Positions 1,228 through 34,874 of a DNA stretch of 38,762 nucleotides are shown piece by piece; positions within the stretch are counted from its first letter, which is position 1, and the number at the start of each line of letters is the position of its first letter. The notes under the pieces were generated by a model. That model was given only the letters and a program-made list of their open reading frames with translations, was not told the DNA's origin and did no database searches. Origin of the DNA: Nemertoderma westbladi (lineage: Eukaryota; Animalia; Xenacoelomorpha); contig JAUCBJ010001634.1 in the NCBI GenBank assembly GCA_032718475.1, forward strand, positions 1 through 38,762, given 5' to 3'. A program made the translations under genes and the position numbers.

Positions 1228-4200
1228 GCCTATTACTTATACTACTCCAACATTTCGCACCCAATACACGCGACTGCCTATTACTTATACTACTCCAACA
1301 TTTCGCACCAAATACACGCGACTGCCTATTACTTATACTACTCCAACATTTCGCACCAAATACACGCGACTACCTATTACTTATACTACTCCAACATTTC
1401 GCACCAAATACACGCGACTGCCTATTACTTATACTACTCCAACATTTCGCACCAAATACACGCGACTACCTATTACTTATACTACTCCAACATTTCGCAC
1501 CAAATACACGCGACTACCTATTACTTATACTACTCCAACATTTCGCACCAAATACACGCGACTACCTATTACTTATACTACTCCAACATTTCGCACCAAA
1601 TACACGCGACTGCCTATTACTTATACTACTCCAACATTTCGCACCAAATACACGCGACTACCTATTACTTATACTACTCCAACATTTCGCACCAAATACA
1701 CGCGACTGCCTATTACTTATACTACTCCAACATTTCGCACCAAATACACGCGACTGCCTATTACTTATACTACTCCAACATTTCGCACCAAATACACGCG
1801 ACTACCTATTACTTATACTACTTATACAATTCGCACCAAATACACGCGACTACCTATTACTTATACTACTCCAACATTTCGCACCAAATACACGCGACTA
1901 CCTATTACTTATACTACTCCAACATTTCGCACCAAATACACGCGACTGCCTATTACTTATACTACTCCAACATTTCGCACCAAATACACGCGACTGCCTA
2001 TTACTTATACTACTCCAACATTTCGCACCAAATACACGCGACTGCCTATTACTTATACTACTCCAACATTTCGCACCAAATACACGCGACTGCCTATTAC
2101 TTATACTACTCCAACATTTCGCACCAAATACACGCGACTGCCTATTACTTATACTACTTATACAATTCGCACCAAATACACGCGACTGCCTATTACTTAT
2201 ACTACTCCAACATTTCGCACCAAATACACGCGACTGCCTATTACTTATACTACTCCAACATTTCGCACCAAATACACGCGACTGCCTATTACTTATACTA
2301 CTCCAACATTTCGCACCAAATACACGCGACTACCTATTACTTATACTACTCCAACATTTCGCACCAAATACACGCGACTGCCTATTACTTATACTACTCC
2401 AACATTTCGCACCAAATACACGCGACTGCCTATTACTTATACTACTCCAACATTTCGCACCCAATACACGCGACTACCTATTACTTATACTACTCCAACA
2501 TTTCGCACCCAATACACGCGACTACCTATTACTTATACTACTCCAACATTTCGCACCAAATACACGCGACTACCTATTACTTATACTACTCCAACATTTC
2601 GCACCAAATACACGCGACTGCCTATTACTTATACTACTCCAACATTTCGCACCAAATACACGCGACTACCTATTACTTATACTACTCCAACATTTCGCAC
2701 CAAATACACGCGACTGCCTATTACTTATACTACTCCAACATTTCGCACCAAATACACGCGACTGCCTATTACTTATACTACTCCAACATTTCGCACCAAA
2801 TACACGCGACTACCTATTACTTATACTACTCCAACATTTCGCACCAAATACACGCGACTGCCTATTACTTATACTACTCCAACATTTCGCACCAAATACA
2901 CGCGACTGCCTATTACTTATACTACTCCAACATTTCGCACCAAATACACGCGACTGCCTATTACTTATACTACTCCAACATTTCGCACCAAATACACGCG
3001 ACTGCCTATTACTTATACTACTCCAACATTTCGCACCAAATACACGCGACTGCCTATTACTTATACTACTCCAACATTTCGCACCAAATACACGCGACTG
3101 CCTATTACTTATACTACTCCAACATTTCGCACCAAATACACGCGACTGCCTATTACTTATACTACTCCAACATTTCGCACCAAATACACGCGACTACCTA
3201 TTACTTATACTACTCCAACATTTCGCACCAAATACACGCGACTACCTATTACTTATACTACTCCAACATTTCGCACCAAATACACGCGACTACCTATTAC
3301 TTATACTACTCCAACATTTCGCACCCAATACACGCGACTGCCTATTACTTATACTACTCCAACATTTCGCACCAAATACACGCGACTGCCTATTACTTAT
3401 ACTACTCCAACATTTCGCACCAAATACACGCGACTACCTATTACTTATACTACTCCAACATTTCGCACCAAATACACGCGACTACCTATTACTTATACTA
3501 CTCCAACATTTCGCACCAAATACACGCGACTGCCTATTACTTATACTACTCCAACATTTCGCACCAAATACACGCGACTACCTATTACTTATACTACTCC
3601 AACATTTCGCACCAAATACACGCGACTGCCTATTACTTATACTACTCCAACATTTCGCACCAAATACACGCGACTGCCTATTACTTATACTACTCCAACA
3701 TTTCGCACCAAATACACGCGACTACCTATTACTTATACTACTCCAACATTTCGCACCAAATACACGCGACTACCTATTACTTATACTACTCCAACATTTC
3801 GCACCAAATACACGCGACTGCCTATTACTTATACTACTCCAACATTTCGCACCAAATACACGCGACTACCTATTACTTATACTACTCCAACATTTCGCAC
3901 CAAATACACGCGACTACCTATTACTTATACTACTCCAACATTTCGCACCCAATACACGCGACTGCCTATTACTTATACTACTCCAACATTTCGCACCAAA
4001 TACACGCGACTGCCTATTACTTATACTACTCCAACATTTCGCACCAAATACACGCGACTACCTATTACTTATACTACTCCAACATTTCGCACCAAATACA
4101 CGCGACTACCTATTACTTATACTACTCCAACATTTCGCACCAAATACACGCGACTGCCTATTACTTATACTACTCCAACATTTCGCACCAAATACACGCG

Positions 4201-7200
4201 ACTACCTATTACTTATACTACTCCAACATTTCGCACCAAATACACGCGACTGCCTATTACTTATACTACTCCAACATTTCGCACCAAATACACGCGACTA
4301 CCTATTACTTATACTACTCCAACATTTCGCACCAAATACACGCGACTACCTATTACTTATACTACTCCAACATTTCGCACCAAATACACGCGACTGCCTA
4401 TTACTTATACTACTCCAACATTTCGCACCAAATACACGCGACTGCCTATTACTTATACTACTCCAACATTTCGCACCAAATACACGCGACTACCTATTAC
4501 TTATACTACTCCAACATTTCGCACCAAATACACGCGACTACCTATTACTTATACTACTCCAACATTTCGCACCAAATACACGCGACTGCCTATTACTTAT
4601 ACTACTCCAACATTTCGCACCAAATACACGCGACTACCTATTACTTATACTACTCCAACATTTCGCACCAAATACACGCGACTACCTATTACTTATACTA
4701 CTCCAACATTTCGCACCAAATACACGCGACTACCTATTACTTATACTACTCCAACATTTCGCACCCAATACACGCGACTGCCTATTACTTATACTACTCC
4801 AACATTTCGCACCAAATACACGCGACTACCTATTACTTATACTACTCCATACATTTCGCACCAAATACACGCGACTACCTATTACTTATACTACTCCAAC
4901 ATTTCGCACCAAATACACGCGACTGCCTATTACTTATACTACTCCAACATTTCGCACCCAATACACGCGACTGCCTATTACTTATACTACTCCAACATTT
5001 CGCACCAAATACACGCGACTGCCTATTACTTATACTACTCCAACATTTCGCACCAAATACACGCGACTGCCTATTACTTATACTACTCCAACATTTCGCA
5101 CCCAATACACGCGACTACCTATTACTTATACTACTTATATAATTCGCACCAAATACACGCGACTACCTATTACTTATACTACTCCAACATTTCGCACCAA
5201 ATACACGCGACTGCCTATTACTTATACTACTCCAACATTTCGCACCAAATACACGCGACTACCTATTACTTATACTACTTATACAATTCGCACCAAATAC
5301 AAGCGACTGCCTATTACTTATACTACTCCAACATTTCGCACCAAATACACGCGACTGCCTATTACTTATACTACTCCAACATTTCGCACCAAATACACGC
5401 GACTGCCTATTACTTATACTACTCCAACATTTCGCACCCAATACACGCGACTGCCTATTACTTATACTACTCCAACATTTCGCACCCAATACACGCGACT
5501 GCCTATTACTTATACTACTCCAACATTTCGCACCAAATACACGCGACTGCCTATTACTTATACTACTCCAACATTTCGCACCAAATACACGCGACTACCT
5601 ATTACTTATACTACTCCAACATTTCGCACCAAATACACGCGACTACCTATTACTTATACTACTCCAACATTTCGCACCAAATACACGCGACTACCTATTA
5701 CTTATACTACTCCAACATTTCGCACCAAATACACGCGACTACCTATTACTTATACTACTCCAACATTTCGCACCAAATACACGCGACTGCCTATTACTTA
5801 TACTACTCCAACATTTCGCACCAAATACACGCGACTGCCTATTACTTATACTACTCCAACATTTCGCACCAAATACACGCGACTGCCTATTACTTATACT
5901 ACTCCAACATTTCGCACCAAATACACGCGACTGCCTATTACTTATACTACTCCAACATTTCGCACCAAATACACGCGACTGCCTATTACTTATACTACTC
6001 CAACATTTCGCACCAAATACACGCGACTGCCTATTACTTATACTACTCCAACATTTCGCACCAAATAGACGCGACTATCTATTACTTATACTACTCCAAC
6101 ATTTCTCACCCAATACACGCGACTACCTATTACTTATACTACTCCAACATTTCGCACCAAATACACGCGACTGCCTATTACTTATACTACTCCAACATTT
6201 CGCACCAAATACACGCGACTGCCTATTACTTATACTACTCCAACATTTCGCACCAAATACACGCGACTGCCTATTACTTATACTACTCCAACATTTCGCA
6301 CCAAATACACGCGACTGCCTATTACTTATACTACTCCAACATTTCGCACCAAATACACGCGACTGCCTATTACTTATACTACTCCAACATTTCGCACCAA
6401 ATAGACGCGACTATCTATTACTTATACTACTCCAACATTTCGCACCCAATACACGCGACTACCTATTACTTATACTACTCCAACATTTCGCACCAAATAC
6501 ACGCGACTGCCTATTACTTATACTACTCCAACATTTCGCACCAAATAGACGCGACTATCTATTACTTATACTACTCCAACATTTCGCACCCAATACACGC
6601 GACTACCTATTACTTATACTACTCCAACATTTCGCACCAAATACACGCGACTGCCTATTACTTAAACTACTCCAACATTTCGCACCCAATACACGCGACT
6701 ACCTATTACTTATACTACTCCAACATTTCGCACCAAATACACGCGACTGCCTATTACTTATACTACTCCAACATTTCGCACCAAATAGACGCGACTATCT
6801 ATTACTTATACTACTCCAACATTTCGCACCCAATACACGCGACTACCTATTACTTATACTACTCCAACATTTCGCACCAAATAGACGCGACTATCTATTA
6901 CTTATACTACTCCAACATTTCGCACCAAATACACGCGACTGCCTATTACTTATACTACTCCAACATTTCGCACCAAATAGACGCGACTATCTATTACTTA
7001 TACTACTCCAACATTTCGCACCCAATACACGCGACTACCTATTACTTATACTACTCCAACATTTCGCACCAAATAGACGCGACTATCTATTACTTATACT
7101 ACTCCAACATTTCGCACCAAATACACGCGACTGCCTATTACTTATACTACTCCAACATTTCGCACCAAATAGACGCGACTATCTATTACTTATACTACTC

Positions 7201-7534
7201 CAACATTTCGCACCCAATACACGCGACTACCTATTACTTATACTACTCCAACATTTCGCACCAAATAGACGCGACTATCTATTACTTATACTACTCCAAC
7301 ATTTCGCACCAAATACACGCGACTGCCTATTACTTATACTACTCCAACATTTCGCACCAAATACACGCGACTACCTATTACTTATACTACTCCAACATTT
7401 CGCACCAAATACACGCGACTACCTATTACTTATACTACTCCAACATTTCGCACCAAATACACGCGACTGCCTATTACTTATACTACTCCAACATTTCGCA
7501 CCAAATACACGCGACTGCCTATTACTTATACTAC
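1228..7534. repeat. 48-bp minisatellite, ~131 copies
   Basis: Unit gcctattacttatactactccaacatttcgcaccaaatacacgcgact; very homogeneous, with a few recurring variants. Confidence 0.98.
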
Positions 7535-8014: not shown

Positions 8015-8587
8015 AATAAGTTCCGAATATTTAGAGCAGCAGTAGTTCCAGTACTCCTCTATGGGAGTCCATGCTGGGCTTTAACTGCTAAGTGCTGAGG
8101 ACACCAAATCGTTGGATGGCACATTTACAATAATGCTACGTCGGGTTCATTGTGTCAAGTACAATGAACACATCTTCAACCAGACACTACATCAATTGGA
8201 TGTGTCTCATTGGTTCCCCCAAGCTTGACACTAGAACAAAGCCGCCTCCGCTTTACAGGACATTGTTTTCGCCGTGAGGACCAGCCAGTGCATAATCTTG
8301 TACTTTGGCAGCCTCATGGAGTGAATACGCATGGTGGACAGCCCATGACTTTCTTGAGACGCCCCATAAAGGATACTGACCTTGAAGATGCGGATAATCT
8401 CGTGAAAGTCGTGGGGGATAGGGAGTTGTGGCGACGCAATTTTGTCGACAAGCCGGTTTACCATTATTAATGCACGCTGTATTGTGCTTGCCAATAGAGG
8501 ATTGCATGGTTGTGACAAAATGTTTTTGTTAAGCTGGCATCTCAATGTGCAGTTCAATGCAGTAGGCCAATTATAGTAGTAGTAGTA
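8015..8587 (+). mobile_element. 5'-truncated RTE-clade LINE 3' end (degenerate)
   Basis: Encodes RLRFTGHCFR...LWQP...GDRELWRRNFVDKP (RTE-type C-terminus), has an upstream frameshift and ends in a (TAG)n tail at ~8573-8587. It aligns by eye with the minus-strand copy at 32.3-34.8 kb. Confidence 0.85.
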
Positions 8588-9084: not shown

Positions 9085-9325
9085 TTAAACATCCCGATTC
9101 GAACTGCTTTTCCGTAATTCCGAGTTAATTTCATCCGCATCATATCTGTCGGTTTCGGACAAATACCGGTCAACTGCTTCAGAATGTCCGTCATTTAGTG
9201 GTTGTTGGTTGGCATGGTAAATGTTGGAATGTTGTACTGACGTCAACCGAATAGAATTGCCTTGGTAGTTAGGGCGGTTAGACGATCGGCAACAACAAAA
9301 GAATTGTTTCAATCCCAAACGAAAT
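9085..9325 (-). CDS. Class A GPCR, last coding exon (helix 8, Cys cluster, C-tail)
   Basis: Acceptor CTTTTTCAACAG|A at 9326; phase 2 completes AG|A = Arg, giving SKRFRLGLKQFFCCCRSS...SSSNRDV*. This is a typical helix 8 (FR..LK.FF) followed by candidate palmitoylation cysteines. Confidence 0.9.
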
Positions 9326-9618: not shown

Positions 9619-11085
9619 AAATGTTAGGGAAATCTTGTTGATAAAGGGTTTTTCACCATGTGGATATATTGAAAATGGTGGATTGTTTACCGTATGGCCA
9701 TTTCACCCATCACGGGCGTCTTCAGCGGTATATATATACACAACAATAAAATAAATAAAACCATTTAAATCGAATTAGAGACCAACAAGATTTCGATTAG
9801 ACATTAGAGACCTTTAAAAGATTTCCAAGAAGCATAGTGTGCAGAGGGTGTACAATATAAATTAAAATAAAACAAACACAACCTCTGTACAATATAAATT
9901 AAAATAAAACAAACACAACCTCTGCACAATATAAATTAAAATAAAACAAACACAACCTCTGCACAATATAAATTAAAATAAAACAAACACAACCTCTGTA
10001 CAATATAAATTAAAATAAAACAAACACAACCTCTGCACAATATAAATTAAAATAAAACAAACACAACCTCTGTACAATATAAATTAAAATAAAACAAACA
10101 CAACCTCTGTACAATATAAATTAAAATAAAACAAACACAACCTCTGCACAATATAAATTAAAATAAAACAAACACAACCTCTGCACAATATAAATTAAAA
10201 TAAAACAAACACAACCTCTGCACAATATAAATTAAAATAAAACAAACACAACCTCTGTACAATATAAATTAAAATAAAACAAACACAACTTCTGTACAAT
10301 ATAAATTAAAATAAAACAAACACAACCTCTGTACAATATAAATTAAAATAAAACAAACACAACCTCTGTACAATATAAATTAAAATAAAACAAACACAAC
10401 CTCTGTACAATATAAATTAAAATAAAACAAACACAACCTCTGTACAATATAAATTAAAATAAAACAAACACAACCTCTGTACAATATAAATTAAAATAAA
10501 ACAAACACAACCTCTGTACAATATAAATTAAAATAAAACAAACACAACCTCTGCACAATATAAATTAAAATAAAACAAACACAACCTCTGTACAATATAA
10601 ATTAAAATAAAACAAACACAACCTCTGTACAATATAAATTAAAATAAAACAAACACAACCTCTGTACAATATAAATTAAAATAAAACAAACACAACCTCT
10701 GTACAATATAAATTAAAATAAAACAAACACAACCTCTGTACAATATAAATTAAAATAAAACAAACACAACCTCTGCACAATATAAATTAAAATAAAACAA
10801 ACACAACCTCTGTACAATATAAATTAAAATAAAACAAACACAACCTCTGTACAATATAAATTAAAATAAAACAAACACAACCTCTGCACAATAACCTGCT
10901 TGGAAATCTTTTAAATTTGTTGGTCTCTAATTCGATTAAAATTGTTTTATTTATTTTATTGTTGTGTATATATTCCCTCTGAAGACGCCCGTGATGGGTG
11001 AAATGGCCATACGGTAAACAATCCACCATTTCCAATATATCCACATGGTGAAAGACTCTTTCTAAACGAGATTTACCCAATATTT
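9619..11085. mobile_element. Foldback/MITE-like element with ~200-bp inverted arms
   Basis: 9619-9850 is the imperfect reverse complement of ~10878-11085 (e.g. ttcaccatgtggatatattg / caatatatccacatggtgaa and ggccatttcacccatcacgggcgtcttca / tgaagacgcccgtgatgggtgaaatggcc). Outer ends are fuzzy and no TSD was resolved. Confidence 0.75.
9852..10892. repeat. 37-bp minisatellite, ~28 copies, between the foldback arms
   Basis: Unit acaatataaattaaaataaaacaaacacaacctctg(t/c). Confidence 0.97.
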
Positions 11086-11344: not shown

Positions 11345-12496
11345 GATCACTTCAGCAACTCGCTTGGGCTGCCACCAAGAGGGCTGCTAAGGAGGTTGGA
11401 TTGCATATAAATGCTACCAAGACCGAATTCAATTCATGACTTTTAATGTTGATGGAAACTTGACAACAATCGATAATAATCAACAAGGAAGGTTGACGAT
11501 TTCCAGTACCTTGGATCATGAATGCCTGAACGGGACAGCTCCTAACTACCTATCACAGTTGGTTTCAGTTTACCAACCGGCACGAGATCTTCGTTCTGCT
11601 TACCAAAACAACCTGGTACAACCTAGGTACCGACTTGAACATTATGGACGTCGATCATTTTCGGTTGCAGCTCCGATGATATGGAACGCACTCCCAGATT
11701 CGGTTAAATCTTGTGGGTCTCTGGAGTCATTTAAGCGATGTCTCAAGACTCATTATTTTAGCCGTGTATATAAATGATCTTTTAATTACTTAGTACTGCT
11801 TTTACTTTTTAGCTAGTGCGCCTAGAGCACTTTTTAATTAATTTGAATAGGCGCTGATAAATAAATATATTATTATGGATAGAGAGAGTAGCAGAAAAGA
11901 CATAGAAATTAAGAAAGCAAAGGCTTGGGTAGCTCTATCAAAAATGGATACCATCTGGAAATCAGATCTCTGCAGGCACCTGAAGACTAAGTTCTTTCGA
12001 GCCACAGTGGAAAGTGTATTTTTATACGGGGGTGAGACCTGGACACTGACTAAATCACTTGAACAACGAATTGATGGTTGCTACACAAGACTACTAAGGG
12101 CTAAGGGCAGCCCTAAACATCAGCTGGAGACAACACATGACAAACACCGAGCTCTATGGTACTATACCACCTGTATCAAACACCCTCCGTGAACGCAGAT
12201 TAAGATTCAGTGGGCACTGCTGGCGAAGTAAAGACGAGGTCATACCAGATCTACTTCTCTGGCAACCAACTCATAGAAAGCGTAGTCGTGGACGACCGGC
12301 CATAACATATATAGACCAACTTGAAAGGGATACTGAACTTGGGAGAAACGAAATTGCGACAACTATGGAGAATCGGGAAGCCTGGAAGGATCTCATTTCC
12401 ACTGTCCGAGCTCACTCGACCTATTAGTATTTGGAGAATCGGGAAGCCCGGAAGGATCTCATTTCCACTGTCCGAGCACGCTCGACCTAGTATTAA
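11345..12496 (+). mobile_element. RTE-clade LINE fragment (second family), interrupted by an L2/CR1-group fragment
   Basis: Frameshifted peptides AKEVGLHINATKTEF, VDDFQYLGS|..SRKDIEIKKAKAW, FFRATVESVFLYGGETWTLT, RRLRFSGHCWR, RSRGRP and NREAWK. The last ~65 bp is duplicated. Confidence 0.85.
11521..11877 (+). mobile_element. L2/CR1-group LINE 3' fragment nested in the RTE
   Basis: Encodes CLNGTAPNYLSQL..Y.PARDLRS...YGRRSFSVAAPMIWNALP....SLESFKRCLKTHYF, the typical L2/CR1-group ORF2 end. The 3' UTR has gcgcct...aggcgc stem potential and an AT-rich tail. It splits the RTE YLGS/W motif. Confidence 0.85.
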
Positions 12497-12895: not shown

Positions 12896-13092
12896 CTTTT
12901 GCTCATTGCGAAATAGACAAACGGATTGTAAGCTGACGAAGCGAGAAATAACCAATTGGATATTCGAGTGAATGCGTAGAAAGCACTGCTTCCATCTTCT
13001 ATATTGCTGTATAGCGAAGCTATGTTAGCAATATTTCGTGGTAGCAAAGATAAGCTGGCCAGAAACGCTGATAGCATTAACATTTTTGCCAA
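12896..13092 (-). CDS. Class A GPCR, TM6-TM7 exon
   Basis: Acceptor CTTTTTAG|TTG at 13093 (phase 0, giving RRK|LAKML); encodes LAKMLMLSAFLASLSLLPRNIANI...NWLFLASSAYNPFVYFAMSK with the NPxxY motif; donor AAAAG|GTTAGC at 12895, phase 2. Confidence 0.93.
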
Positions 13093-13218
13093 CTAAAAAG
13101 TATATAAAATATAGGTTTATAGTTAGTTATCTGGACTCCACATTATTGTTTCTACGCAGAAATATATATAGAACCTAATAGCTCAGCATCCAATGTATTC
13201 CTTTCAGTATCAAATAGC

Positions 13219-16200
13219 TGGTAGTCCACATATTACTTACCTTGCGTCGTCCAATAGCCTGCTTGCTAGTCCACATATCACTTACTTTGCGTCGTCCAAT
13301 AGCCTGCTTGCTAGTCCACATATCACTTACTTTGGGTCGTCCAATAGCCTGCTTGCTAGTCCACATATCACTTACTTTGGGTCGTCCAATAGCCTGCTTG
13401 GTAGTCCACATATCACTTACTTTGGGTCGTCCAATAGCCAGCTTGGTAGTCCACATATTACTTACTTTGGGTAGTCCAATAGCCTGCTTGATAGTCTACA
13501 TATCACTTACCTTGCGTCGTCCAATAGCCTGCTTGGTAGTCCACATATCACTTACTTTGGGTCGTCCAATAGCCTGCTTCGTAGTCCACATATCACTTAC
13601 TTTGGGTCGTCCAATAGCCAGCTTGGTAGTCCACATATTACTTACTTTGGGTCGTCCAATAGCCTGCTTCGTAGTCCACATATCACTTACTTTGGGTCGT
13701 CCAATAGCCAGCTTGGTAGTCCACATATCACTTACTTTGGGTCGTCCAATAGCCTGCTTGCTAGTCCACATATCACTTACTTTGGGTCGTCCAATAGCCA
13801 GCTTGGTAGTCCACATATCACTTACTTTGGGTCGTCCAATAGCCTGCTTGGTAGTCCACATATCACTTACTTTGGGTAGTCCAATAGCCTGCTTGATAGT
13901 CTACATATCACTTACCTTGCGTCGTCCAATAGCCTGCTTGGTAGTCCACATATCACTTACTTTGGGTCGTCCAATAGCCTGCTTGGTAGTCCACATATCA
14001 CTTACTTTGGGTAGTCCAATAGCCTGCTTGATAGTCTACATATCACTTACCTTGCGTCGTCCAATAGCCTGCTTGGTAGTCCACATATCACTTACTTTGG
14101 GTCGTCCAATAGCCTGCTTCGTAGTCCACATATCACTTACTTTGGGTCGTCCAATAGCCAGCTTGGTAGTCCACATATTACTTACTTTGGGTAGTCCAAT
14201 AGCCTGCTTGATAGTCTACATATCACTTACCTTGCGTCGTTCAATAGCCTGCTTGGTAGTCCACATATCACTTACTTTGGGTCGTCCAATAGCCTGCTTC
14301 GTAGTCCACATATCACTTACTTTGGGTCGTCCAATAGCCTGCTTGGTAGTCCACTTATCACTTACTTTGGGTCGTCCAATAGCCTGCTTGCTAGTCCACA
14401 TATCACTTACTTTGGGTCGTCCAATAGCCTGCTTGATAGTCCACATATCACTTACTTTGGGTCGGCCAATAGCCAGCTTGGTAGTCCACATATTACTTAC
14501 TTTGGGTAGTACAATGGCCTGCTTGATAGTCTACATATCACTTACCTTGCGTCGTCCAATAGCCTGCTTGGTAGTCCACATATCACTTAGTTTGGGTCGT
14601 CCAATAGCCTGCTTGCTAGTCCACATATCACTTACTTTGGGTCGTCCAATAGCCTGCTTGCTAGTCCACATATCACTTACTTTGGGTCGTCCAATAGCCT
14701 GCTTGCTAGTCCACATATCACTTACTTTGGGTCGTCCAATAGCCTGCTTGCTAGTCCACATATCACTTACTTTGGGTCGTCCAATAGCCTGCTTCGTAGT
14801 CCACATATCACTTACTTTGGGTCGTCCAATAGCCAGCTTGGTAGTCCACATATTACTTACCTTGCGTCGTCCAATAGCCTGCTTGGTAGTCCACATATCA
14901 CTTAGTTTGGGTCGTCCAATAGCCTGCTTGGTAGTCCACATATCACTTACTTTGCGTCGGCCAATAGCCTGCTTGGAAGTCTACATATCACTTACTTTGC
15001 GTCGTCCAATAGCCTGCTTGGTAGTCCACATATCACTTACTTTGGGTCGTCCAATAGCCTGCTTGCTAGTCCTCATATCACTTACTTTGCGTCGTCCAAT
15101 AGCCTGCTTGGTAGTCCACATATTACTTACTTTGGATCGTCCAATAGCCTCCTTGCTAGTCCACATATCACTTACCTTGCGTCGTCCAATTTGGTAGTCA
15201 CATATCACTTACTTTGGGTAGTCCAATAGCCTGCTTGCTAGTCCACATATCACTTACTTTGGGTCGTCCAATAGCCTGCTTGCTAGTCCACATATCACTT
15301 ACTTTGCGTCGTCCAATAGCCTGCTTGGTAGTCCACATATCACTTACTTTGGGTCGTCCAATAGCCTGCTTGCTAGTCCACATATCACTTACTTTGGGTC
15401 GTCCAATAGCCTGCTTGCTAGTCCACATATCACTTACTTTGCGCCGTCCAATAGCCTGCTTGGTAGTCCACATATCACTTACTTTGGATCGTCCAATAGC
15501 CTCCTTGCTAGTCCACATATCACTTACCTTGCGTCGTCCAATTTTTTAGTCACATATCACTTACTTTGGGTAGTCCAATAGCCTGCTTGCTAGTCCACAT
15601 ATCACTTACTTTGGGTCGTCCAATAGCCTGCTTGCTAATCCACATATCACTTACTTTGGGTCGTCCAATAGCCTGCTTGCTAGTCCACATATCACTTACT
15701 TTGCGTCGTCCAATAGCCTGCTTGGTAGTCCACATATCACTTACTTTGGGTCGTCCAATAGCCAGCTTGGTAGTCCACATATTACTTACTTTGGGTAGTC
15801 CAATAGCCTGCTTGATAGTCTACATATCACTTACCTTGCGTCGTCCAATAGCCTGCTTGGTAGTCCACATATCACTTACTTTGGGTCGTCCAATAGCCTG
15901 CTTCGTAGTCCACATATCACTTACTTTGGGTCGTCCAATAGCCAGCTTGGTAGTCCACATATTACTTACTTTGGGTCGTCCAATAGCCTGCTTCGTAGTC
16001 CACATATCACTTACTTTGGGTCGTCCAATAGCCTGCTTGTTAGTCCACATATCACTTACTTTACGTCGTCCAATAGCCTGCTTGGTAGTCCACATATTAC
16101 TTACTTTGGGTCGTCCAATAGCCTGCTTGCTAGTCCACATATCACTTACTTTGGGTCGTCCAATAGCCTGCTTGCTAGTCCACATATCACTTACTTTGGG

Positions 16201-19200
16201 TCGTCCAATAGCCTGCTTGCTAGTCCACATATCACTTACTTTGGGTCGTCCAATAGCCTGCTTGCTAGTCCACATATCACTTACTTTGGGTCGTCCAATA
16301 GCCTGCTTCGTAGTCCACATATCACTTACTTTGGGTCGTCCAATAGCCAGCTTGGTAGTCCACATATTACTTACCTTGCGTCGTCCAATAGCCTGCTTGG
16401 TAGTCCACATATCACTTAGTTTGGGTCGTCCAATAGCCTGCTTGGTAGTCCACATATCACTTACTTTGCGTCGTCCAATAGCCTGCTTGGAAGTCTACAT
16501 ATCACTTACTTTGCGTCGTCCAATAGCCTGCTTGGTAGTCCACATATCACTTACTTTGGGTCGTCCAATAGCCTGCTTGCTAGTCCTCATATCACTTACT
16601 TTGCGTCGTCCAATAGCCTGCTTGGTAGTCCACATATTACTTACTTTGGATCGTCCAATAGCCTCCTTGCTAGTCCACATATCACTTACCTTGCGTCGTC
16701 CAATTTGGTAGTCACATATCACTTACTTTGGGTAGTCCAATAGCCTGCTTGCTAGTCCACATATCACTTACTTTGGGTCGTCCAATAGCCTGCTTGCTAG
16801 TCCACATATCACTTACTTTGCGTCGTCCAATAGCCTGCTTGGTAGTCCACATATCACTTACTTTGGGTCGTCCAATAGCCTGCTTGCTAGTCCACATATC
16901 ACTTACTTTGGGTCGTCCAATAGCCTCCTTGCTAGTCCACATATCACTTACCTTGCGTCGTCCAATTTGGTAGTCACATATCACTTACTTTGGGTAGTCC
17001 AATAGCCTGCTTGCTAGTCCACATATCACTTACTTTGGGTCGTCCAATAGCCTGCTTCGTAGTCCACATATCACTTACTTTGGGTCGTCCAATAGCCTGC
17101 TTGCTAGTCCACATATAACTTACTTTGCGCCGTCCAATAGCCTGCTTGGTAGTCCACATATCACTTACTTTGGATCGTCCAATAGCCTCCTTGCTAGTCC
17201 ACATATCACTTACCTTGCGTCGTCCAATTTGGTAGTCACATATCACTTACTTTGGGTAGTCCAATAGCCTGCTTGCTAGTCCACATATCACTTACTTTGG
17301 GTCGTCCAATAGCCTGCTTGCTAATCCACATATCACTTACTTTGGGTCGTCCAATAGCCTGCTTGCTAGTCCTCATATCACTTACTTTGCGTCGTCCAAT
17401 AGCCTGCTTGGTAGTCCACATATTACTTACTTTGGATCGTCCAATAGCCTCCTTGCTAGTCCACATATCACTTACCTTGCGTCGTCCAATTTGGTAGTCA
17501 CATATCACTTACTTTGGGTAGTCCAATAGCCTGCTTGCTAGTCCACATATCACTTACTTTGGGTCGTCCAATAGCCTGCTTGCTAGTCCACATATCACTT
17601 ACTTTGCGTCGTCCAATAGCCTGCTTGGTAGTCCACATATCACTTACTTTGGGTCGTCCAATAGCCTGCTTGCTAGTCCACATATCACTTACTTTGGGTC
17701 GTCCAATAGCCTCCTTGCTAGTCCACATATCACTTACCTTGCGTCGTCCAATTTGGTAGTCACATATCACTTACTTTGGGTAGTCCAATAGCCTGCTTGC
17801 TAGTCCACATATCACTTACTTTGGGTCGTCCAATAGCCTGCTTCGTAGTCCACATATCACTTACTTTGGGTCGTCCAATAGCCTGCTTGCTAGTCCACAT
17901 ATAACTTACTTTGCGCCGTCCAATAGCCTGCTTGGTAGTCCACATATCACTTACCTTGCGTCGTCCAATTTGGTAGTCACATATCACTTACTTTGGGTAG
18001 TCCAATAGCCTGCTTGCTAGTCCACATATCACTTACTTTGGGTCGTCCAATAGCCTGCTTGCTAATCCACATATCACTTACTTTGGGTCGTCCAATAGCC
18101 TGCTTGCTAGTCCACATATCACTTACTTTGGGTCGTCCAATAGCCTGCTTGCTAGTCCACATATCACTTACTTTGGGTCGTCCAATAGCCTGCTTGCTAA
18201 TCCACATATCACTTACTTTGGGTCGTCCAATAGCCTGCTTGCTAGTCCACATATAACTTACTTTGCGCCGTCCAATAGCCTGCTTGGTAGTCCACATATT
18301 ACTTACTTTGGATCGTCCAATAGCCTCCTTGCTAGTCCACATATCACTTACCTTGCGTCGTCCAATTTGGTAGTCACATATCACTTACTTTGGGTAGTCC
18401 AATAGCCTGCTTGCTAGTCCACATATCACTTACTTTGGGTCGTCCAATAGCCTGCTTGCTAATCCACATATCACTTACTTTGGGTCGTCCAATAGCCTGC
18501 TTGCTAGTCCACATATCACTTACTTTGCGTCGTCCAATAGCCTGCTTGGTAGTCCACATATCACTTACTTTGGGTCGTCTAATAGCCTGCTTGGTAGTCC
18601 ACATATTACTTACCTTACGTCGTCCAATAGCCTGCTTGGTAGTCCACATATCACTTACTTTGGGTCGTCCAATAGCCTGCTTGGTAGTCCACATATCACT
18701 TACTTTGGGTCGTCCAATAGCCTGCTTGGTAGTCCACATATTACTTACCTTACGTCGTCCAATAGCCTGCTTGGTAGTCCACATATCACTTACTTTGGGT
18801 CGTCCAATAGCCTGCTTGGTAGTCCACACATCACTTACCTTGCGTCGTCCAATTTGGTAGTCACATATCACTTACTTTGGGTAGTCCAATAGCCTGCTTG
18901 CTAGTCCACATATCACTTACTTTGCGTCGTCCAATAGCCTGCTTGGTAGTCCACATATCACTTACTTTGGATCGTCCAATAGCCTCCTTGCTAGTCCACA
19001 TATCACTTACCTTGCGTCGTCCAATTTGGTAGTCACATATCACTTACTTTGGGTAGTCCAATAGCCTGCTTGCTAGTCCACATATCACTTACTTTGCGTC
19101 GTCCAATAGCCTGCTTGGTAGTCCACATATCACTTACTTTGAGTCGCCCAATAGCCTGTTTCGTAGTCCACATATTACTTACCTTGGGTCGTCCAATAGC

Positions 19201-19385
19201 CTGCTTGGTAGTCCACATATTACTTACCTTACGTCGTCCAATAGCCTGCTTGGTAGTCCACATATTACTTACCTTACGTCGTCCAATAGCCTGCTTGGTA
19301 GTCCACATATCACTTACTTTGGGTCGTCCAATAGCCTGCTTGCTAGTCCACATATTACTTACCTTACGTCGTCCAATAGCCTGCT
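13219..19385 (-). repeat. 45-bp tandem array (~139 units, 11 of them 37-bp variants) derived from the GPCR exon/intron donor junction
   Basis: Minus-strand unit AGCAGGCTATTGGACGAC(G/C)(C/T)AA(G/A)|GTAAGT(G/A)ATATGTGGACTA(C/G)CA; the first unit overlaps the last 23 nt of the TM5 exon. Confidence 0.97.
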
Positions 19386-19507
19386 CCGAACTCCAGGTAT
19401 GCTCCAACTCAGGTGGACGGCACAATGTATATGCTATTATGGTGTAACAGACGAATACGATTGTCAAAGGTATAAAACATGAGAATATAGCGAACAATGT
19501 GATTTCT
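19363..19507 (-). CDS. Class A GPCR, TM5-ICL3 exon
   Basis: Acceptor TTGTTTCAG|A at 19508; encodes EITLFAIFSCFIPLTIVFVCYTIIAYTLCRPPELEHTWSSEQAIGRRK with P5.50 and Y5.58 at the correct spacing; donor AAG|GTAAGT at 19362, phase 0. Confidence 0.92.
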
Positions 19508-21296: not shown

Positions 21297-24200
21297 TATA
21301 GGAAACAGAGTGGAAGGGTTTATTGTGGAAGATCACCCATGGTGGTGAACAGGCATTCCTTTATAGGAAACAGAGTGGAAGGGTTTACTGTGGAAGATCA
21401 CCCATGGTGGTGAACAGGCATTCCTTTAGGAAACGGAGTGGACGGGTTTACTGTTGAAGATCAGCCATGGTGGTGAACAGGCATTCCTTTAGGAAACAGA
21501 GTGGAAGGGTTTACTATGGAAGATCACCCATGGTGGTGAACAGGCATTCCTTTAGGAAACAGAGTGGAAAGGTTTACTGGGGAAGATCAACCATATAGTA
21601 GTGAACATGCATTCCTTTAGGAAACAGAGTGGAAGGGTTTACTGTGAAAGATCACCCATGGTGGTGAACATGCATTCCTTTATGAAACATAATGGAAGGG
21701 TTCACTGTGTAAGATCACCCATGGTGGAGAACAGGCATTCCTTTATGAAACAGAGTGGAAGGGTTTACTGTGGATGATCACCCATGGTTGTGAACAAGCA
21801 TTCCTTTAGGAAAAAGAGTGGAAAGGTTTACTATGGAAGATCAACATGGTGATGAACAGGCATTCCTTTAGGAAACGGAGTGGACGGGTTTACTGTGGAA
21901 GATCAGCCATGGTAGTGAACAGGCATTCCTTTAGGAAACAGAGTGGAAAGGTTTACTGTGGAAGATCAACCATATAGTGGTGAACATGCATTCCTTTAGG
22001 AAACAAAGTGGAAGGGTTTACTGTGGAAGATAACCCATGGTGGAGAACAGGCATTCCTTTATGAAACAGAGTGGAAGGGTTTAATGTGGAAGATCACCCT
22101 TGGTGGAGAACAGGCATTCCTTTATGAAACAGAGTGGAAGGGTTTACTGTGGATGATCACCCATGGTTGTGAACAGGCATTCCTTTAGGAAACAGAGTGG
22201 AAGAGTTTACTGCGGAAGATCACCCATGGTGGAGAACAGGCATTCCTTTATGAAACAGAGTGGAAGGGTTTACTGTTAAGATCACCCATGGTGGTGTATA
22301 GGCATTCCTTTAGGAAACAGCATGGAAGGGTTTACTATGGAAGATCACCCATGGTGGAGAACAGGTATTCCTTTATGAAACAGAGTGGAAGGGTTTAATG
22401 TGGAAGATCACCCTTGGTGGAGAACAGGCATTCCTTTATGAAACAGAGTGGAAGGGTTTACTGTGGATGATCACCCATGGTTGTGAACAGGCATTCCTTT
22501 AGGAAACAGAGTGGAAGAGTTTACTGCGGAAGATCACCCATGGTGGAGAACAGGCATTCCTTTATGAAACAGAGTGGAAGGGTTTACTGTGGAAGATCAC
22601 CCATGGTGGTGAACAGGCATTCCTTTCGGAAACAGAGTGGAAGGGTTTACTGTGGAAGATCACCCATGGTGGAGAACAGGCATTCCTTTATGAAACAGAG
22701 TGGAAGGGTTTACTGTGGAAGATCACCCATGGTGGAGAACAGGCATTCCTTTATGAAACAGAGTGGAAGGGTTTACTGTGGATGATCACCCATGGTTGTG
22801 AACAGGCATTCCTTTAGGAAACAGAGTGGAAGAGTTTACTGCGGAAGATCACCCATGGTGGAGAACAGGCATTCCTTTATGAAACAGAGTGGAAGGGTTT
22901 ACTGTTAAGATCACCCATGGTGGTGTATAGGCATTCCTTTAGGAAACAACATGGAAGGGTTTACTATGGAAGATCACCTATGGTGGAGAACAGGTATTCC
23001 TTTATGAAACAGAGTGGAAGGGTTTACTGTGGAAGATCACCCATGGTGGTGAACAGGCATTCCTTTCGGAAACAGAGTGGAAGGGTTTACTGTGGAAGAT
23101 CACCCATGGTGGAGAACAGGCATTCCTTTATGAAACAGAGTGGAAGGGTTTACTGTGGAAGATCACCCATGGTGGAGAACAGGCATTCCTTTATGAAACA
23201 GAGTGGAAGGGTTTACTGTGGATGATCACCCATGGTTGTGAACAGGCATTCCTTTAGGAAACAGAGTGGAAGGGTTTACTGCGGAAGATCACCCATGGTG
23301 GAGAACAGGCATTCCTTTATGAAACAGAGTGGAAGGGTTTACTGTGGATGATCACCCATGGTTGTGAACAGGCATTCCTTTATGAAACAGAGTGGAAGGG
23401 TTTACTGTGGAAGATCACCCATGGTGGAGAACAGGCATTCCTTTATGAAACAGAGTGGAAGGGTTTACTGTGGATGATCACCCATGGTTGTGAACAGGCA
23501 TTCCTTTAGGAAACAGAGTGGAAGGGTTTACTGCGGAAGATCACCCATGGTGGAGAACAGGCATTCCTTTATGAAACAGAGTGGAAGGGTTTACTGTGGA
23601 AGATCACCCATGGTGGAGAACAGGCATTCCTTTATGAAACAGAGTGGAAAGGTTTACTGTGGATGATCACCCATGGTTGTGAACAGGCATTCCTTTAGGA
23701 AACAGAGTGGAAGGGTTTACTGCGGAAGATCACCCATGGTGGAGAACAGGCATTCCTTTATGAAACAGAGTGGAAGGGTTTACTGTGGAAGATCACCCAT
23801 GGTGGTGAACAGGCATTCCTTTAGGAAACAGAGTGGAAGGGTTTACTGTGGAAGATCACCCATGGTGGTGTATAGGCATTCCTTTAGGAAACAGAGTGGA
23901 AGGGTTTACTGTGGAAGATCACCCATGGTGGTGAACAGACATTCGTTTAGGAAACAGAGTGGAAGGGTTTACTGTGGAAGATCACCCATGGTGGTGTATA
24001 GGCATTCCTTTAGGAAACAGAGTGGAAGGGTTTACTGTGGAAGATCACCCATGGTGGAGAACAGGCATTCCTTTATGAAACAGAGTGGAAGGGTTTACTG
24101 TGGAAGATCACCCATGGTGGTGAACAGGCATTCCTTTAGGAAACAGAGTGGAAAGGTTTACTGTGGAAGATCACCCATGGTGGTGAACAGGCATTCCTTT

Positions 24201-24472
24201 AGGAAACAGAGTGGAAGGGTTTACTGTGGAAGATCACCCATGGTGGTGAACAGGCATTCCTTTAGGAAACAGAGTGGAAGGGTTTACTGTGGAAGATCAC
24301 CCATGGTGGTGAACAGGCATTCCTTTCGGAAACAGAGTGGAAGGGTTTACTGTGGAAGATCACCCATGGTGGAGAACAGGCATTCCTTTATGAAACAGAG
24401 TGGAAGGGTTTACTGTGGATGATCATCCATGGTTGTGAACAGGCATTCCTTTGGGAAACAGAATGGAAGGGT
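21297..24472. repeat. 63-bp minisatellite, ~50 copies (intronic)
   Basis: Unit ggaaacagagtggaagggtttactgtggaagatcacccatggtggtgaacaggcattccttta with variants. Confidence 0.97.
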
Positions 24473-25244: not shown

Positions 25245-25710
25245 TTCTTACACTTACATTCCATTTGTACCAACTACCAAGTGCTAAATGATTATAAGAC
25301 CGCAAATACCCTAATACGCTAACTCGCTGAATGTTAATTGCGAATACCCCTCCGCTTCGCGAATAGCCAATTGTACACGTATAACCTAATAATAAAAGCG
25401 TTTTGCACAAACTGCGGGGGCGCTAAAGTCTTAACTTATTACTTTTAGATAGTCTTTGAAAGTACTCTATACAAAGTCCTAACCCGATAACTGTGTATTG
25501 TCATGGAAACGTAATGGCTTCTTACCTGGACATCCATACAATGTATTTCAATTTATTGCACAGGCGACATATTATTATGTAGTGAGTGATTGCCGTGAAA
25601 TGGAAATACCTAGATATATTGACAATCGTTATTTCAAAATTGATCCGGTCTAATTGTTGAGATACCCCAAATTGAGGTTCTAAATTTGTGAAAATATTAG
25701 TGAAACAATT
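25245..25710. repeat. Diverged duplicated segment, copy 1 (paralogous to 31095-31562)
   Basis: Shared collinear blocks: aagtgctaaatgatt, ttgcgaatacccctc, gcgctaaagtc, tttgaaagtact.tatacaaagtcctaacccgataa, gtattgtcatggaaac, ttcttacctggaca, gtgaaatggaaa, gacaatcgttatt, ttagtgaaacaat. Confidence 0.85.
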
Positions 25711-25734
25711 TTATGGTTAAAGAGAAAACTCTAT

Positions 25735-26245
25735 TTGTGGGGCGAGCCACGAAGTGAGTGAGCCTTAGCGTAGTGGTACCATTAATCAACCTGTCGTTCT
25801 GTCGTTCTGTCGTTCTGTCGTTCTGTCGTTCTGTCGTTCTGTCGTGTTCAATTTTAAACGTTAATAACTCGGCCAATCTTTGATGAAATCTATCCAAACT
25901 TGGTACACATGTTGTTTGGCAAAAGTTTAGAAATTTTCCAAGTAGAATTTCCGTGTGGCCTTCGAGAAGCTAAGATAATAGCAGTTAATTAGTTAATTAA
26001 GTTGATTACGGTAAAAACACCATTTTCAACCTGCCTTTTAAAGGAAATTAATTGTTTTACAGTATAAGACTTCAATAATTATACTTAAAAAATATACAGA
26101 TGTAATCCGCATACTCCATTCTATTATAGTTTTTAATTAGTTCAAGTGATTTGCTTTAATAATCGTGTCTTTAATTGATCTAAAGTAATTAAACCGGCAT
26201 AAAAAATGTATTCTCATTAAATACTGCTCATTTATTGGTTAACAT
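25735..26245 (+). mobile_element. Helentron-associated (HINE/DINE-1-like) non-autonomous element, 5' part, copy 1
   Basis: Starts ttgtggggcgagccacgaagtgagtgagcc, followed by a (ctgtcgtt)n microsatellite and the core aatctttgatgaaatctatccaaacttggtacac; near-identical to the starts at 27799 and 28342. Confidence 0.7.
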
Positions 26246-27798
26246 CCAAGTTGGCTTGATTCCCAGCAACACTTGAGGTATTCAGTCAGCCTTGCTTGTA
26301 AGAGGCAGACTGCTGCTGCTGCTAGTAGCCATCCATTCACTCACTCTCCATTGAACTGGCTGATTGGAGGTGTGTGTGTATCGGGTTCAATGACATTAAT
26401 ATTATTACTAAAGTAACGTCGGGATGTTAATATTCACTGGAGCTATGAGTCTCTCTGGTTAGTTGAATGAATGAAATAAATAATTGTTTTACTGTTCCGA
26501 ATATCAATGTTTATTTCTGTAGGCCAACTTACTGTATTATTATTTAATCTAAATGTACATAATAGTTTAAATAAATTATTTCACAATTTCATTCCAATTC
26601 ATACTGCTTACGCAACCATGCTAATTAGGTATATTAAATGGCAGGATTGTTTTTAATTAAAATTTTTACAGAGCAAACAAGTATATTGTATTTAACTGAA
26701 AGTTAATTTATTTCGGTAAGTAGGCCTTGCGGTTTGTTAGTTTAGTTAGTATAATAAGTATCAAATATATTACGTGCTGCTGTACAGTAAACGCGGCTTT
26801 GCGTTATTGAATTACATAATTGGCGGTACAAAGTACGTTAATAGGGATCAGGCATATTGCATTTATATAATTGTTGTTGTAAATGTACAATAATATGCGC
26901 CACTTTTATTTTAGTAACTGCAATGTGTATTTCATTTGTACCTGCAACCCATTAAAAAGGGCAGCTGAACATATCGCGGACAGGCTGACTATTCACCATA
27001 ACAAAAAAACCCAAATCGCCGCAGTTCCACTTACAGTTCCATATTATTCTGTTTTGCAATTCAACCCAATTTATCTGCTCTCTGCTACACGCGGTTTTAT
27101 CCACGAGTTTTGTAAAGTCCCGACTTATCGGGAATGACATGAACTTAGCGTCCGGAATATTCTGATCAGATTAAATCTACTTGGCGCTGTAATACTGCAT
27201 CCCGTTGTACCAGAAGTTATTAAAACATACCGGCCCCTCAAATGCGCTTGCAGTGGGTTAGAGAACAACATATACCGCCCCAGTACAACCGCTATTTTGA
27301 TAAGGTCCAATATATAATATATATATATGGTCTAACATATGATAGTTCACTAATCAGCTAATAGGCCTATTAATTCGTGAGATTTCAATTTATAAATAAA
27401 ACTAATATACGAGCTCATATGAGCTCAATTGATTGATTGATTGAAGGTATGACCGTTGTTGTGGGGGACTAGGTCTACCTGTCTAGCAGCTAATAACTCG
27501 TCCGTGGAGAGAATAATATAAGTCGAGGAACATAACGAAACGCGTTTAATTTATTTATTTATTCCAATTGGGGATGCTTTCTAACGCGGGAATGCGGTGC
27601 TATTAAACATCAACACATTCCTGCGCGTGCGTCGATATTGTGCACCCTAATACTAACAACCCACCCAGACACCCCCTACCCCTCACCCCCCCCCCCCCCC
27701 CCCCCCATCACCCAACATTACTATGTATAGATCAATGCAGCTCAATATATTAGTAAAGGTATCGTCTGATTAGCTTTCCTACACATGACCTCTTATCC

Positions 27799-30335
27799 TT
27801 GTGGGGCGAGCCACGAAGTGAGTGAGCCTTAGCGTAGTGGTACCATTAATCAACCTGTCGTTCTGTCGTTCTGTCGTTCTGTCGTGTTCAATTTTAAACG
27901 TTAATAACTCGGCCAATCTTTGATGAAATCTATCCAAACTTGGTACACATGTTGTTTGGCAAAAGTTTAGAAATTTTCCAAGTAGAATTTCCGTGTGGCC
28001 TTCGAGAAGCTAAGATAATAGCAGTTAATTAGTTAATTAAGTTGATTGCGGTGAAAACGCCATTTTCAACCTGCCTTTTAAAGGAAATTAATTGTTTTAC
28101 AGTATAAGATTTAAATAATTATACTTAAAAATTATACAGATATAATCCCCATACGCCATTCTATTATAGTTTTTAATTAGTTTAAGTGATTTGCTTTAAT
28201 AAATGTGTCTTTAATTGATCTAAACGTAATTAAACCGCACAATTATTGAGTACAAATTTAATCCTTCCCATTATTGGTCAAGTCTCTGCTGGTGTGGAGC
28301 TAGCTGCTGGGAGTTGTGGCTGTAGACTAACCTGAGAGGAATTGTGGGGCGAGCCACGAAGTGAGTGAGCCTTAGCGTAGTGGTACCATTAATCAACCTG
28401 TCGTTCTGTCGTTCTGTCGTTCTGTCGTGTTCAATTTTAAACGTTAATAACTCGGCCAATCTTTGATGAAATCTATCCAAACTTGGTACACATGTTGTTT
28501 GGCAAAAGTTTAGAAATTTTCCAAGTAGAATTTCAGTGTGGCCTTCGAGAAGCTAAGATAATAGCAGTTAATTAGTTAATTAAGTTATTACGGTAAAAAC
28601 ACCATTTTCAACCTGCCTTTTAAAGGAAATTAATTGTTTTACAGTATAAGATTTAAATAATTGTAATTAAAAATTATACAGATGTAATCCCCATACGCCA
28701 TTCTATTATAGTTTTTAATTAGTTCAAGTGATTTGCTTTAATAATTGTGTCTTTAATTGATCTAAAGTAATTAAAACGGCAAAAAAAATTTATTCTCATT
28801 AAATACTGCTCATTTATTGGCCAACATGCTGGTACATAGATGGGATGTGTGTGTCATTCCCAGTTGCTGGGAATGATTATTGGTCAAGTCTCTGCTGCTG
28901 GCTGGGAGTTGTTGCTAAGACTAACCAGAGAGGAATAGTAATAGACAACCAGTATTGCTATTCCAGCCCAGACAGCATTCTTTAAATTCACTATAAATGT
29001 TGTATTGCTATCTCAGGTGAATGACAGATATCATAACATAAATACTATCCATGGCATGGCTGTTGTGTAGGCTTCTGAAATAGTTTATTCCACAATGTAT
29101 ATGTCTGGTTATTTTTTAATTGAATTTTTGCAAAGTAGTAAAATTAATGTTCTTAAAAATAATATTATTATTTTATATGTAACCTAGGAAATTAGCTACA
29201 TTTTTTCGCTGCAGCTTTAAGAGTGTACATTAATTTAATATTATTTCAATACCCATATTACTACATCGGCATAAGATGCGTTGGCGTTGTATCACACATC
29301 TCCACATATCACACATATCCACATAGATGTATCAACAGTTACTCGCACAGTTTCGAAACTTCGCATAGTTACACCTGTATAAAGATCGTCAGTCTGCGTT
29401 TAGGAAAAATATTTTATAACAAAACAGGACAAGCGACGAGTGCAACGAGGCATATAATGAAGACGAGTACTGCGTTGACTAAATGATTATATAAACCACC
29501 TGGCTTCACATATTGATCGCATCCCTAGTTATTATTATTATAAAGAACGTCCTAGCCTGCGTTTAAGAAATATATTTAAATACAAAACAGGACGAACGCA
29601 ACGAGGCTTATAATGAATACGAGTACTGCGTTTATTATATTCCTATAAACCACCTGGCTTTGCATATTGAACGTGCGATTGGAAATAAGTTCGTGCTACC
29701 CTTCCGTGGGTGGTAGATGTCGCGGTTATGTATTGGTGGTTGGGAAGGGTGGGGGGGGGGGGGATTAAAAGGGGTGAACACGTACTGTCCCCCTTTCTTT
29801 GATTGATTGGTGGTGTGGGTAAATTTCTCAAAACCTGATTTTGTGATGCAGTCGCTCAATTTTAATTTGTATCTCATAACTGGGCCTCGTGCTGCGCGAA
29901 GGCCCCACGAACGTGTAGTTGTTTATTTATTTACACTATTTTTTGTTGAGTAAATCTTTCTGATAGGGGGGGGGGGGGGGGACTTACTCTGGACGAGCGC
30001 AATGATTGAACGACGCTTATAATAATTAAGACGAGTACGGCGTTGATTATATTCATATACACCACCTGGCTTTGCATATTTAACGTGCGATTGGAAATAA
30101 GTTCGTTCTACCCTTCCGTGGGTGGTAGATGTCACGGTTATGTATTGGTGGTTGAGAAGGGTGGGGGGGGGGGGGGGGGGATTAAAAGGGGTGAACACGT
30201 ACTGTCCCCCTTTCTTTGATTGATTGGTGGTGTGGGTAAATTTCTCAAAACCTGATTTTGTGATACAGTCGCTTAATTTTAATTTGTATCTCATAACTGG
30301 ACCTCGTGCTGCGCGAAGGCCCCACGAACGTGTTT
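27799..30335 (+). mobile_element. HINE-like element, copy 2 (apparently interrupted by copy 3)
   Basis: Same 5' end at 27799. Sequence at 28270-28341 matches copy 3 internal 28876-28936, and a second 3' terminus (cctcgtgctgcgcgaaggccccacgaacgtgt) lies at ~30300-30333. Confidence 0.6.
28342..29920 (+). mobile_element. HINE-like element, copy 3 (apparently complete)
   Basis: 5' gtggggc matches 3' gccccac as a short subterminal inverted repeat; microsatellite near the 5' end; 3' hairpin ggcctcgtgc-t-gcgcgaaggcc; T-rich flanks and no TSD. Confidence 0.7.
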
Positions 30336-33640: not shown

Positions 33641-34874
33641 CACCCATGACATTTGCTAGATCATCCGCTTCTTCAAGGCCAGTGTCCTTTAAGATGCGTC
33701 TCAAGAAAGTCATGGGCTGTCCACCATGCTTATTCAGTCCATGAGGCTGCCAAAGTATAAGTTTATGCACTGGCTGGTCCTCACGGTGAAAGCAATGTCC
33801 TGCAAAGCGGAGGCGATTTTGTTCTAGTGTCAAGCTTGGGGGAACCAATGAGACACCTCCAATATTATATAGTGTCTGGTTGGAGATGTGTGCATTGTAC
33901 TTGACACAATGTACCCGGCGTAGCATTCTTGTGAATGTGCCATCCAGAGATTTGGTGTCCTCAGCAGTTAGAGCCCAACATGGACTCTCATAGAGAGGTA
34001 CTGAAACTACTGCTGCTCTAAATAATCGGACCTTAAGTTTCCGATTAATTCTCGGTGACTTCCAAATCCTGCAAAGCATATTCAAGGCTGCCCAATGCTT
34101 CCCCTTACGTATTCGAAGGTCCTCATCTGACTTCCGGATCCATGATCCCAGGTAACAGAAGTCGTCCACATGCTCAAGCATACCATCCGATCAGAGACTT
34201 GCTGAGGACTTTCAAAGTTAACTGTCAAAATTTTGGTCTTTCTGGAGTTAATAAAAAGACCAACACTAGAAGCAGCATATTATAATGAGCCGAGGAGCCG
34301 TTGGGCTCCCTCTAGTGCTTCTGAGAGTACTCCTAAGTCATCAGCAAAGTCTAGATCAGTTAGGTACTTGGCAGGATTTCCTCGACTTCTGGAGCCAGTA
34401 GGTGGAGTTATCATCACCCCATCATCATTATGATGATCTAAGGACGTGAGTAGAACATAGTCAACCACAATTATGAACAAGAATGGTGCAAGTGTGTCTC
34501 CCTGGAGGACGTCCCATTACACTTCAAATGGTTCTCTGTCACCGTCAACAGTAGAAACAAATGTTGTCGAACCATCGTATACTGATCTGATTGCTGCAAT
34601 AATTTCATCAGCAATCCCATATAATGAAAGTATGTTGAACATACGTGAGCGAGAGACTGAATCAAAGGCCTTGAAGAAGTCAACAAAGATAACAGCCAGA
34701 TGCCTGTCTTTCTTTTTTGATAACTCTTCAATTATCCTTCGGGTATCCATAGTCCCACGAATGCCGAATTGGCCGAATGCCAAAATAAGAAATGACAGAA
34801 GAAATTACAGAAATGCTGGAATGTTTGATCCTGTTTAAACACTTAGTTAGTAGGCCTACAACATGAATAAACTA

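Follow-up and report, generated by a model that had tools for sequence, protein, structure and literature searches.

The question raised by this locus is which splice donor is used when an exon–intron boundary has been copied in tandem inside a GPCR gene, and whether the copies grade the length of ICL3. The window, i.e., the whole 38,762-nucleotide stretch of Nemertoderma westbladi DNA analyzed here (contig JAUCBJ010001634.1), contains such copies on its minus strand. An earlier note had described them as a ladder of eight in-frame donors, each skipped donor adding a 15-residue module. The eight positions are right: a motif search finds GTAAGT on the minus strand at 19362, 19317, 19272, 19227, 19182, 19137, 19092, and 19047, preceded by AAG (AAG/GT, the slash marking the boundary) at 19362, 19272, 19227, and 19182 and by AAA (AAA/GT) at the other four. 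However, they make up only the top 353 bp of an array of ~139 units and 8 of its 136 GT donors.

Three minus-strand exons (19507–19363, 13092–12896, and 9325–9085) join in frame through canonical splice sites. The TM5 exon (19363–19507, 145 nt) has a phase-2 acceptor, ends at a phase-0 donor, and matches Pfam 7tm_1 with E = 0.0038; its exon–intron boundary was taken from the sequence. The TM6-ECL3-TM7 exon (12896–13092, 197 nt) contains NPxxY, has a phase-2 donor, and matches 7tm_1 with E = 4.8e-05. The two fragments cover positions 154–189 and 201–260 of 7tm_1, and both lie below the curated gathering cut-off. The putative last coding exon (9085–9325, 241 nt) comprises a helix-8-like stretch, a Cys cluster, the C-tail, and the stop; since it has no Pfam match on its own, it was placed by splice signals and frame. 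Among PDB entries, the TM6-7 exon matches orexin receptor 1 best (E = 1.5e-04), and the nearest Atlas clusters of this exon are 7tm_1 (0.90–0.93). On account of these two matches and the 7tm_1 fragments, the sequence points to a class A (rhodopsin-family) GPCR, perhaps a peptide receptor. The PDB matches of the TM5 exon are weak but mostly GPCRs (best E = 0.049), and the translation contains the TM5 and TM6 prolines and NPxxY, which we take to be class A motifs. Class A receptors usually have CWxP in TM6; at about 13040–13060 (minus strand), this TM6 reads SLLP, keeping the proline, and the aligned orexin receptor likewise has no Trp.

No exons for TM1–TM4 were found in the window: none of the 99 upstream minus-strand ORFs scanned (of 153 with at least 27 aa) matched 7tm_1, and an upstream motif scan for TM1–TM4 or DRY gave nothing convincing. 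These exons may lie beyond the window end. A word-seeded search among longer proteins returned 49 candidate homologues of the TM6-7 exon, none at E ≤ 0.01, and none for the TM5 exon, while none of 590 pattern matches in metagenome contigs was a homologue. The read-through frame matched H2TH_5 and TOH_N in Pfam, which was put down to noise inflated by the repeats. Upstream of the TM5 exon lies a 63-bp array (21299–24472, ~50 copies). At its 5′ edge is a candidate ECL2 exon (24505–24416, minus strand), a short open frame after AG with two cysteines, which ends in phase 2 at ACA/GTAAAC, a poor donor matching the TM5 exon acceptor phase; no GPCR match was found for it. Together with this candidate, the 63-bp array could be a second junction-spanning array. 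A 37-bp AT-rich array (9849–10893, 28 copies) sits midway along the last intron of the gene; its unit has no donor motif.

The array between the TM5 and TM6 exons was delimited by Tandem Repeats Finder as a minus-strand minisatellite at 13219–19385 (period 45, 139.0 copies, 90% matches), i.e., ~139 head-to-tail units over about 6.1–6.2 kb of a single haplotype. As the earlier note had stated, the 45-nt unit consists of the last 23 nt of the TM5 exon and the first 22 nt of its intron. The 5′ edge thus sits 23 nt inside an exon that matches 7tm_1 and is linked in frame to the following exon by its donor. At both ends, the array runs cleanly into unique sequence (exon on one side, intron on the other), and the unique 3′ part of the intron (13093–13218, 126 nt) contains the pyrimidine tract and acceptor. 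Among the 139 donor-register positions, 136 are GT and three have been inactivated by a change to CT; the spacing between consecutive positions is 45 nt in 127 units and 37 nt in 11. The shorter unit, first seen at 19011–19047, carries a 1-nt and a 7-nt deletion, and its 1-nt deletion creates a stop, which in this first copy is the TGA at 19035–19033. This is indeed the first in-frame stop, as had been noted. In total, 39 distinct unit types are present in a nested structure. A head-to-tail array of a ~10–160-bp unit, the spanning of a real boundary, and repetition of the donor are the structural features of a junction-spanning, donor-repeating minisatellite, and all three are found at 13219–19385, together with a fourth, tandem turnover with less-homogenised edges. 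The array is therefore of the kind known from human genes and from the amphioxus 'mirages'.

Of the human examples, IFI6 reportedly has an in-frame repeat unit. As far as the available parts of PMC1557585 describe them, the F7 intron 7 37-bp VNTR, IFI6 (6-16), CBS intron 13, LMNB2, and PDGF intron 4 resemble the present array in that the first unit spans the boundary and the donor is repeated. In contrast to these F7-type arrays, which have 5–26 units, ~139 units are present here, and the unit is divisible by three, stop-free, and located within a GPCR ICL3; the donor is near-perfect, whereas that of F7 is weak (PMC1557585). The amphioxus mirages (Adh3, BflGb6, and BflGb9) are likewise tandem copies of an exon–intron boundary with its splice signals, and undergo concerted evolution inside with less-homogenised edges; the edge pattern found here matches their edge exclusion, although the copy number is far higher here (PMC3087553, in part). 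Another long array starting at a donor is the 25-bp VNTR of human ABCA7 intron 18, with alleles of 837 and 9711 bp. Its unit, however, begins with GT, and retention, which an alternative form shows for one unit, causes a frameshift (PMC5954066, in part). In the present array, 23 bases of the unit are exonic, and up to seven units can be retained in frame. Finally, the 48-bp VNTR in DRD4 exon 3 has 16 codons per repeat versus 15 here, and this array would similarly set the ICL3 length of a class A GPCR. Yet, DRD4 repeats are constitutively coding and number 2–11 between alleles, whereas those described here become coding only through the choice of a downstream donor and otherwise belong to the intron (PMC3164202, in part). 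A DRD4-type coding ICL3 VNTR was ruled out, as every unit contains a donor and the reading frame closes after the seventh. What is new relative to the known arrays is the scale, the donor strength, and the position in ICL3.

Ordinary repeat expansion is the likely origin of the array. An imperfect 12-nt direct repeat has one copy at the start of the first unit, on the exon side (19372–19383, minus strand), and the other at the end of the last unit, on the intron side (13210–13220, minus strand); aligned as 19383–19372 and 13220–13210, they are identical in 10 of 12 columns. This pair likely seeded the first duplication: mispairing of the repeats flanking the donor would have duplicated 45 nt at the junction of an intron of ~148 nt, and unequal exchange, with nested block duplications, would then have amplified the array to its present size, leaving the 5′ edge closest to the original. 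The intron is now 6270 nt long. Exact duplications of blocks of 14, 9, 8, 8, and 6 units attest to turnover. The mean difference from the edge-derived original is 2.6 bases for the first five units, compared with 4.7 for the rest, and 6 of the 20 singleton unit types are at units 1, 3, 4, 5, 137, and 138. Because edge units stay near the original and the array ends on a donor of the same strong class as the first, the clustering of strong donors at the top can be accounted for without selection. Repeat expansion is, moreover, the local background, since six arrays occupy 45% of the window.

A 48-bp array at 1220–7534 (131 copies) has very long open frames in all three frames of the plus strand; it is not linked to any gene here. 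Decayed non-LTR retrotransposon fragments are present at 33585–34804 (minus strand; RVT_1, E = 0.0016; DUF6451, E = 1.1e-06), with pieces that look similar by eye near 11851–12427 and 8168–8470. A block of ~500 bp occurs in three near-identical copies (about 25700–26200, 27780–28270, and 28270–28790), each holding a CTGTCGTT microsatellite of different length. A 212-aa open frame (37149–37787, minus strand) runs into a 22-bp array and gives a faint HTH_21 match (E = 0.98), and is possibly a transposon remnant.

Donor strength was expressed as the duplex energy with the U1 5′ end motif. Donor 1, the presumed authentic one (19355–19365, minus strand, with GT at 19362), reads AAG/GTAAGTAA and belongs to the strongest class in the array (9 of 139 positions, −12.2 kcal/mol). 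Donor 2, at +45, belongs to the commonest class (96 of 139 positions, −6.4 kcal/mol) and is much weaker. From −3 to +8, donors 3, 4, and 5 have exactly the sequence of donor 1, and the array's final donor (13240) is in the same strong class. Selection of donor 1 by RNA structure was ruled out, as the predicted accessibility of the first 12 donors (0.003–0.15; 0.06 for donor 1) shows no pattern. An out-of-frame donor-like motif, GTAAGG, overlaps five donors, including donor 1, 5 nt upstream (motif search, minus strand: 19367, 19277, 19232, 18753, and 18618). In most units of the 13219–19385 array (minus strand), a phase-0 CAG also precedes the donor by 18 nt and could delimit a microexon of six codons; use of this microexon is unlikely because the CAG has no pyrimidine tract.

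Coordinate joins to exons 13092–12896 and 9325–9085 confirmed that the eight donors are in phase 0, like the acceptor AG at 13094–13093. A complete reading frame results from 8 of the 136 GT donors, open to the natural stop and 193 to 298 aa long counted from TM5, so that a ladder of zero to seven modules is formally possible. The TM5 exon would be 145 nt long with donor 1 and 190 to 460 nt with donors 2–8, which end the seven open 15-codon modules (19048–19362, minus strand). Because of the TGA at 19035–19033 in the first 37-nt unit, all donors after the eighth are unproductive; these are 128 of the 136, including 22 of the 26 AAG/GTAAGT donors, and donor 9 is one of the 22. The proposed module pattern, VS(N/D)MWT(S/T)KQAIGR(R/P/L)K, does not cover the seventh module, which ends in GLPK. 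The junction into TM6 is restored as RRK with donors 1, 3, 4, and 7, but the basic patch before TM6 contains Pro with donors 2, 5, and 8 and Leu with donor 6. R-[RK]-x-[ST] is a PKA-type site motif, and the longest form has four such sites, not the seven expected from one R-K-x-S site per module.

A long open frame was also considered as a sign of selection and was ruled out. Of 138 units, 119 are open when each is read in its own register, and they form runs of 7, 3, 10, 8, 4, 5, 5, 5, 5, 4, 14, 5, 7, 4, 9, 6, 3, 2, 8, and 5 units; runs of 8–14 units lie deep in the intron, and a first run of at least seven occurred in shuffles with P = 0.35. It is the phase-0 donor together with a unit length that is a multiple of three, rather than design, that keeps the frame open over seven units, and GTAAGT in phase 0 contains no in-frame stop. 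Outside the arrays, 40 of 57 GT[AG]AG motifs are stop-free for seven codons, which, with a one-third chance of a length divisible by three, means that about one quarter of such duplications would be open. Thus, the repeat itself exceeds chance, but the open run does not. Across the array, 29 substitution alleles comprise 8 synonymous, 20 missense, and 1 nonsense, and the synonymous share is not unusual against the 29 of 135 possible changes (one-sided P = 0.27). In the first seven modules, 5 of 10 alleles are synonymous, compared with 3 of 19 that occur exclusively deeper in the array (Fisher two-sided P = 0.083; binomial P = 0.044), and none of the 124 overlapping seven-unit windows elsewhere reaches a synonymous share of 0.5. 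This excess favors selection only as a weak hint, because the test is post hoc, only three alleles are private to these modules and all of them are in one unit, and one synonymous allele is the donor −1 base.

From the donor sequences and the precedents, we infer that splicing probably takes place mainly at donor 1 (19362) and that the other donors are mostly silent pseudo-donors. The exon would be defined from the acceptor at 19508 to the first strong donor transcribed, which would yield the 145-nt exon and an RRK/LAKML entry into TM6. A premature stop upstream of exon junctions is the usual trigger of nonsense-mediated decay, and stray use of donors 9–136 would place such a stop upstream of two junctions and lead to decay. 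First-donor use is favored because donor 1 is in the strongest class while donor 2 is much weaker, and because natural cases behave in this way. In the accessible text of PMC1557585, F7, LMNB2, and PDGF use the authentic donor only, IFI6 and CBS use two more, and even the in-frame pseudo-donors of F7 are unused; in that of PMC3087553, regular splicing is undisturbed by the amphioxus mirages. Nevertheless, several observations weigh against first-donor splicing. Besides the identity of donors 3, 4, and 5 to donor 1, nearly all splicing took place at the downstream donor when two strong ones were at least 45 nt apart in model substrates, in HeLa cells and in vitro (PMC3413131, in part), and in F7 minigenes, perfect-consensus pseudo-donors competed and took 70–90% of the splicing from the weaker authentic donor (PMC1557585, in part). 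The synonymous excess in the first seven modules points the same way, donor 1 is not singled out by local folding, and the precedents are mammalian or from amphioxus, whose rules may not be those of this organism.

The downstream preference of the model substrates (PMC3413131, in part) and the two extra donors used by IFI6 and CBS (PMC1557585, in part) fit with leaky or shifted splicing, in which donors 3–5, along with donor 2, would take a real share as a by-product, with no selection for a ladder. Such a leak would yield receptors with 15–60 extra ICL3 residues, and since donors 2–4 keep the frame with an exon of 190–280 nt, these products would escape decay. It is possible but doubtful, considering the first-donor use in F7, LMNB2, and PDGF (PMC1557585, in part) and in amphioxus (PMC3087553, in part), and the proline that donors 2 and 5 place in the basic patch before TM6. 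A further step is improbable, namely that one gene produces several in-frame receptors differing by 15-residue steps in ICL3 and in G-protein or arrestin coupling, with the first stop-bearing unit setting the top of the ladder in each allele; this reading draws on the equality of donors 3–5 with donor 1 and on spacings that favor downstream use.

The array might instead poison the gene: splicing would slide past the stop or skip the TM5 exon, most of the mRNA would be destroyed, and the gene would be weakly expressed or decaying. The 128 unproductive donors are in line with this, as are the downstream preference in model substrates (PMC3413131, in part) and the ABCA7-type arrays, with which exon skipping rises as an alternative form (PMC5954066, in part). 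The TM1–TM4 exons were also not found in the window, but they may lie beyond position 38762, and in the three identified exons the frames are open, the splice sites canonical, and class A motifs present. Poisoning is accordingly considered quite improbable. Still less probable is the proposal of the earlier note in its full form, a selected rheostat in which eight donors would grade the length of ICL3 through phosphorylatable modules, with differences between alleles. In its favor are the eight complete frames, the strength of four of the first five donors, the weak excess of synonymous alleles among modules one to seven, and the importance of ICL3 repeat number in DRD4 (PMC3164202, in part). 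However, the 128 unproductive donors begin at donor 9 and include 22 strong ones, the open run is at chance level, PKA-type sites number only four, and RRK junctions occur with four of the eight donors; moreover, no natural case compared uses more than three donors, as far as the cited portions extend (PMC1557585, PMC5954066, PMC3087553). It is most improbable of all that the array or its top eight units are an assembly artefact: one exact 14-unit block occurs twice, and the copy number could be off for this reason, but there are 39 distinct unit types in a nested structure, units 1, 3, 4, and 5 occur once each, and the transitions to unique sequence, exonic at one end and intronic at the other, are clean.

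Most likely, the locus is a further example of a junction-spanning minisatellite, albeit a large one whose donors are near-perfect. It also constitutes a natural test of two rules. The oriented-scanning rule derived from F7 predicts the use of 19362, whereas the downstream-preference rule for strong donors at least 45 nt apart predicts donors 3–5 or beyond, and in-frame products would survive decay here and hence be countable. To date, a used, in-frame, multi-step donor ladder was not found in the open-access literature, nor was a GPCR loop whose length is graded by splicing. If several of these donors were used and the isoforms signaled differently, this gene would provide such a loop, and a DRD4-like repeat would be read out by splicing inside one cell.
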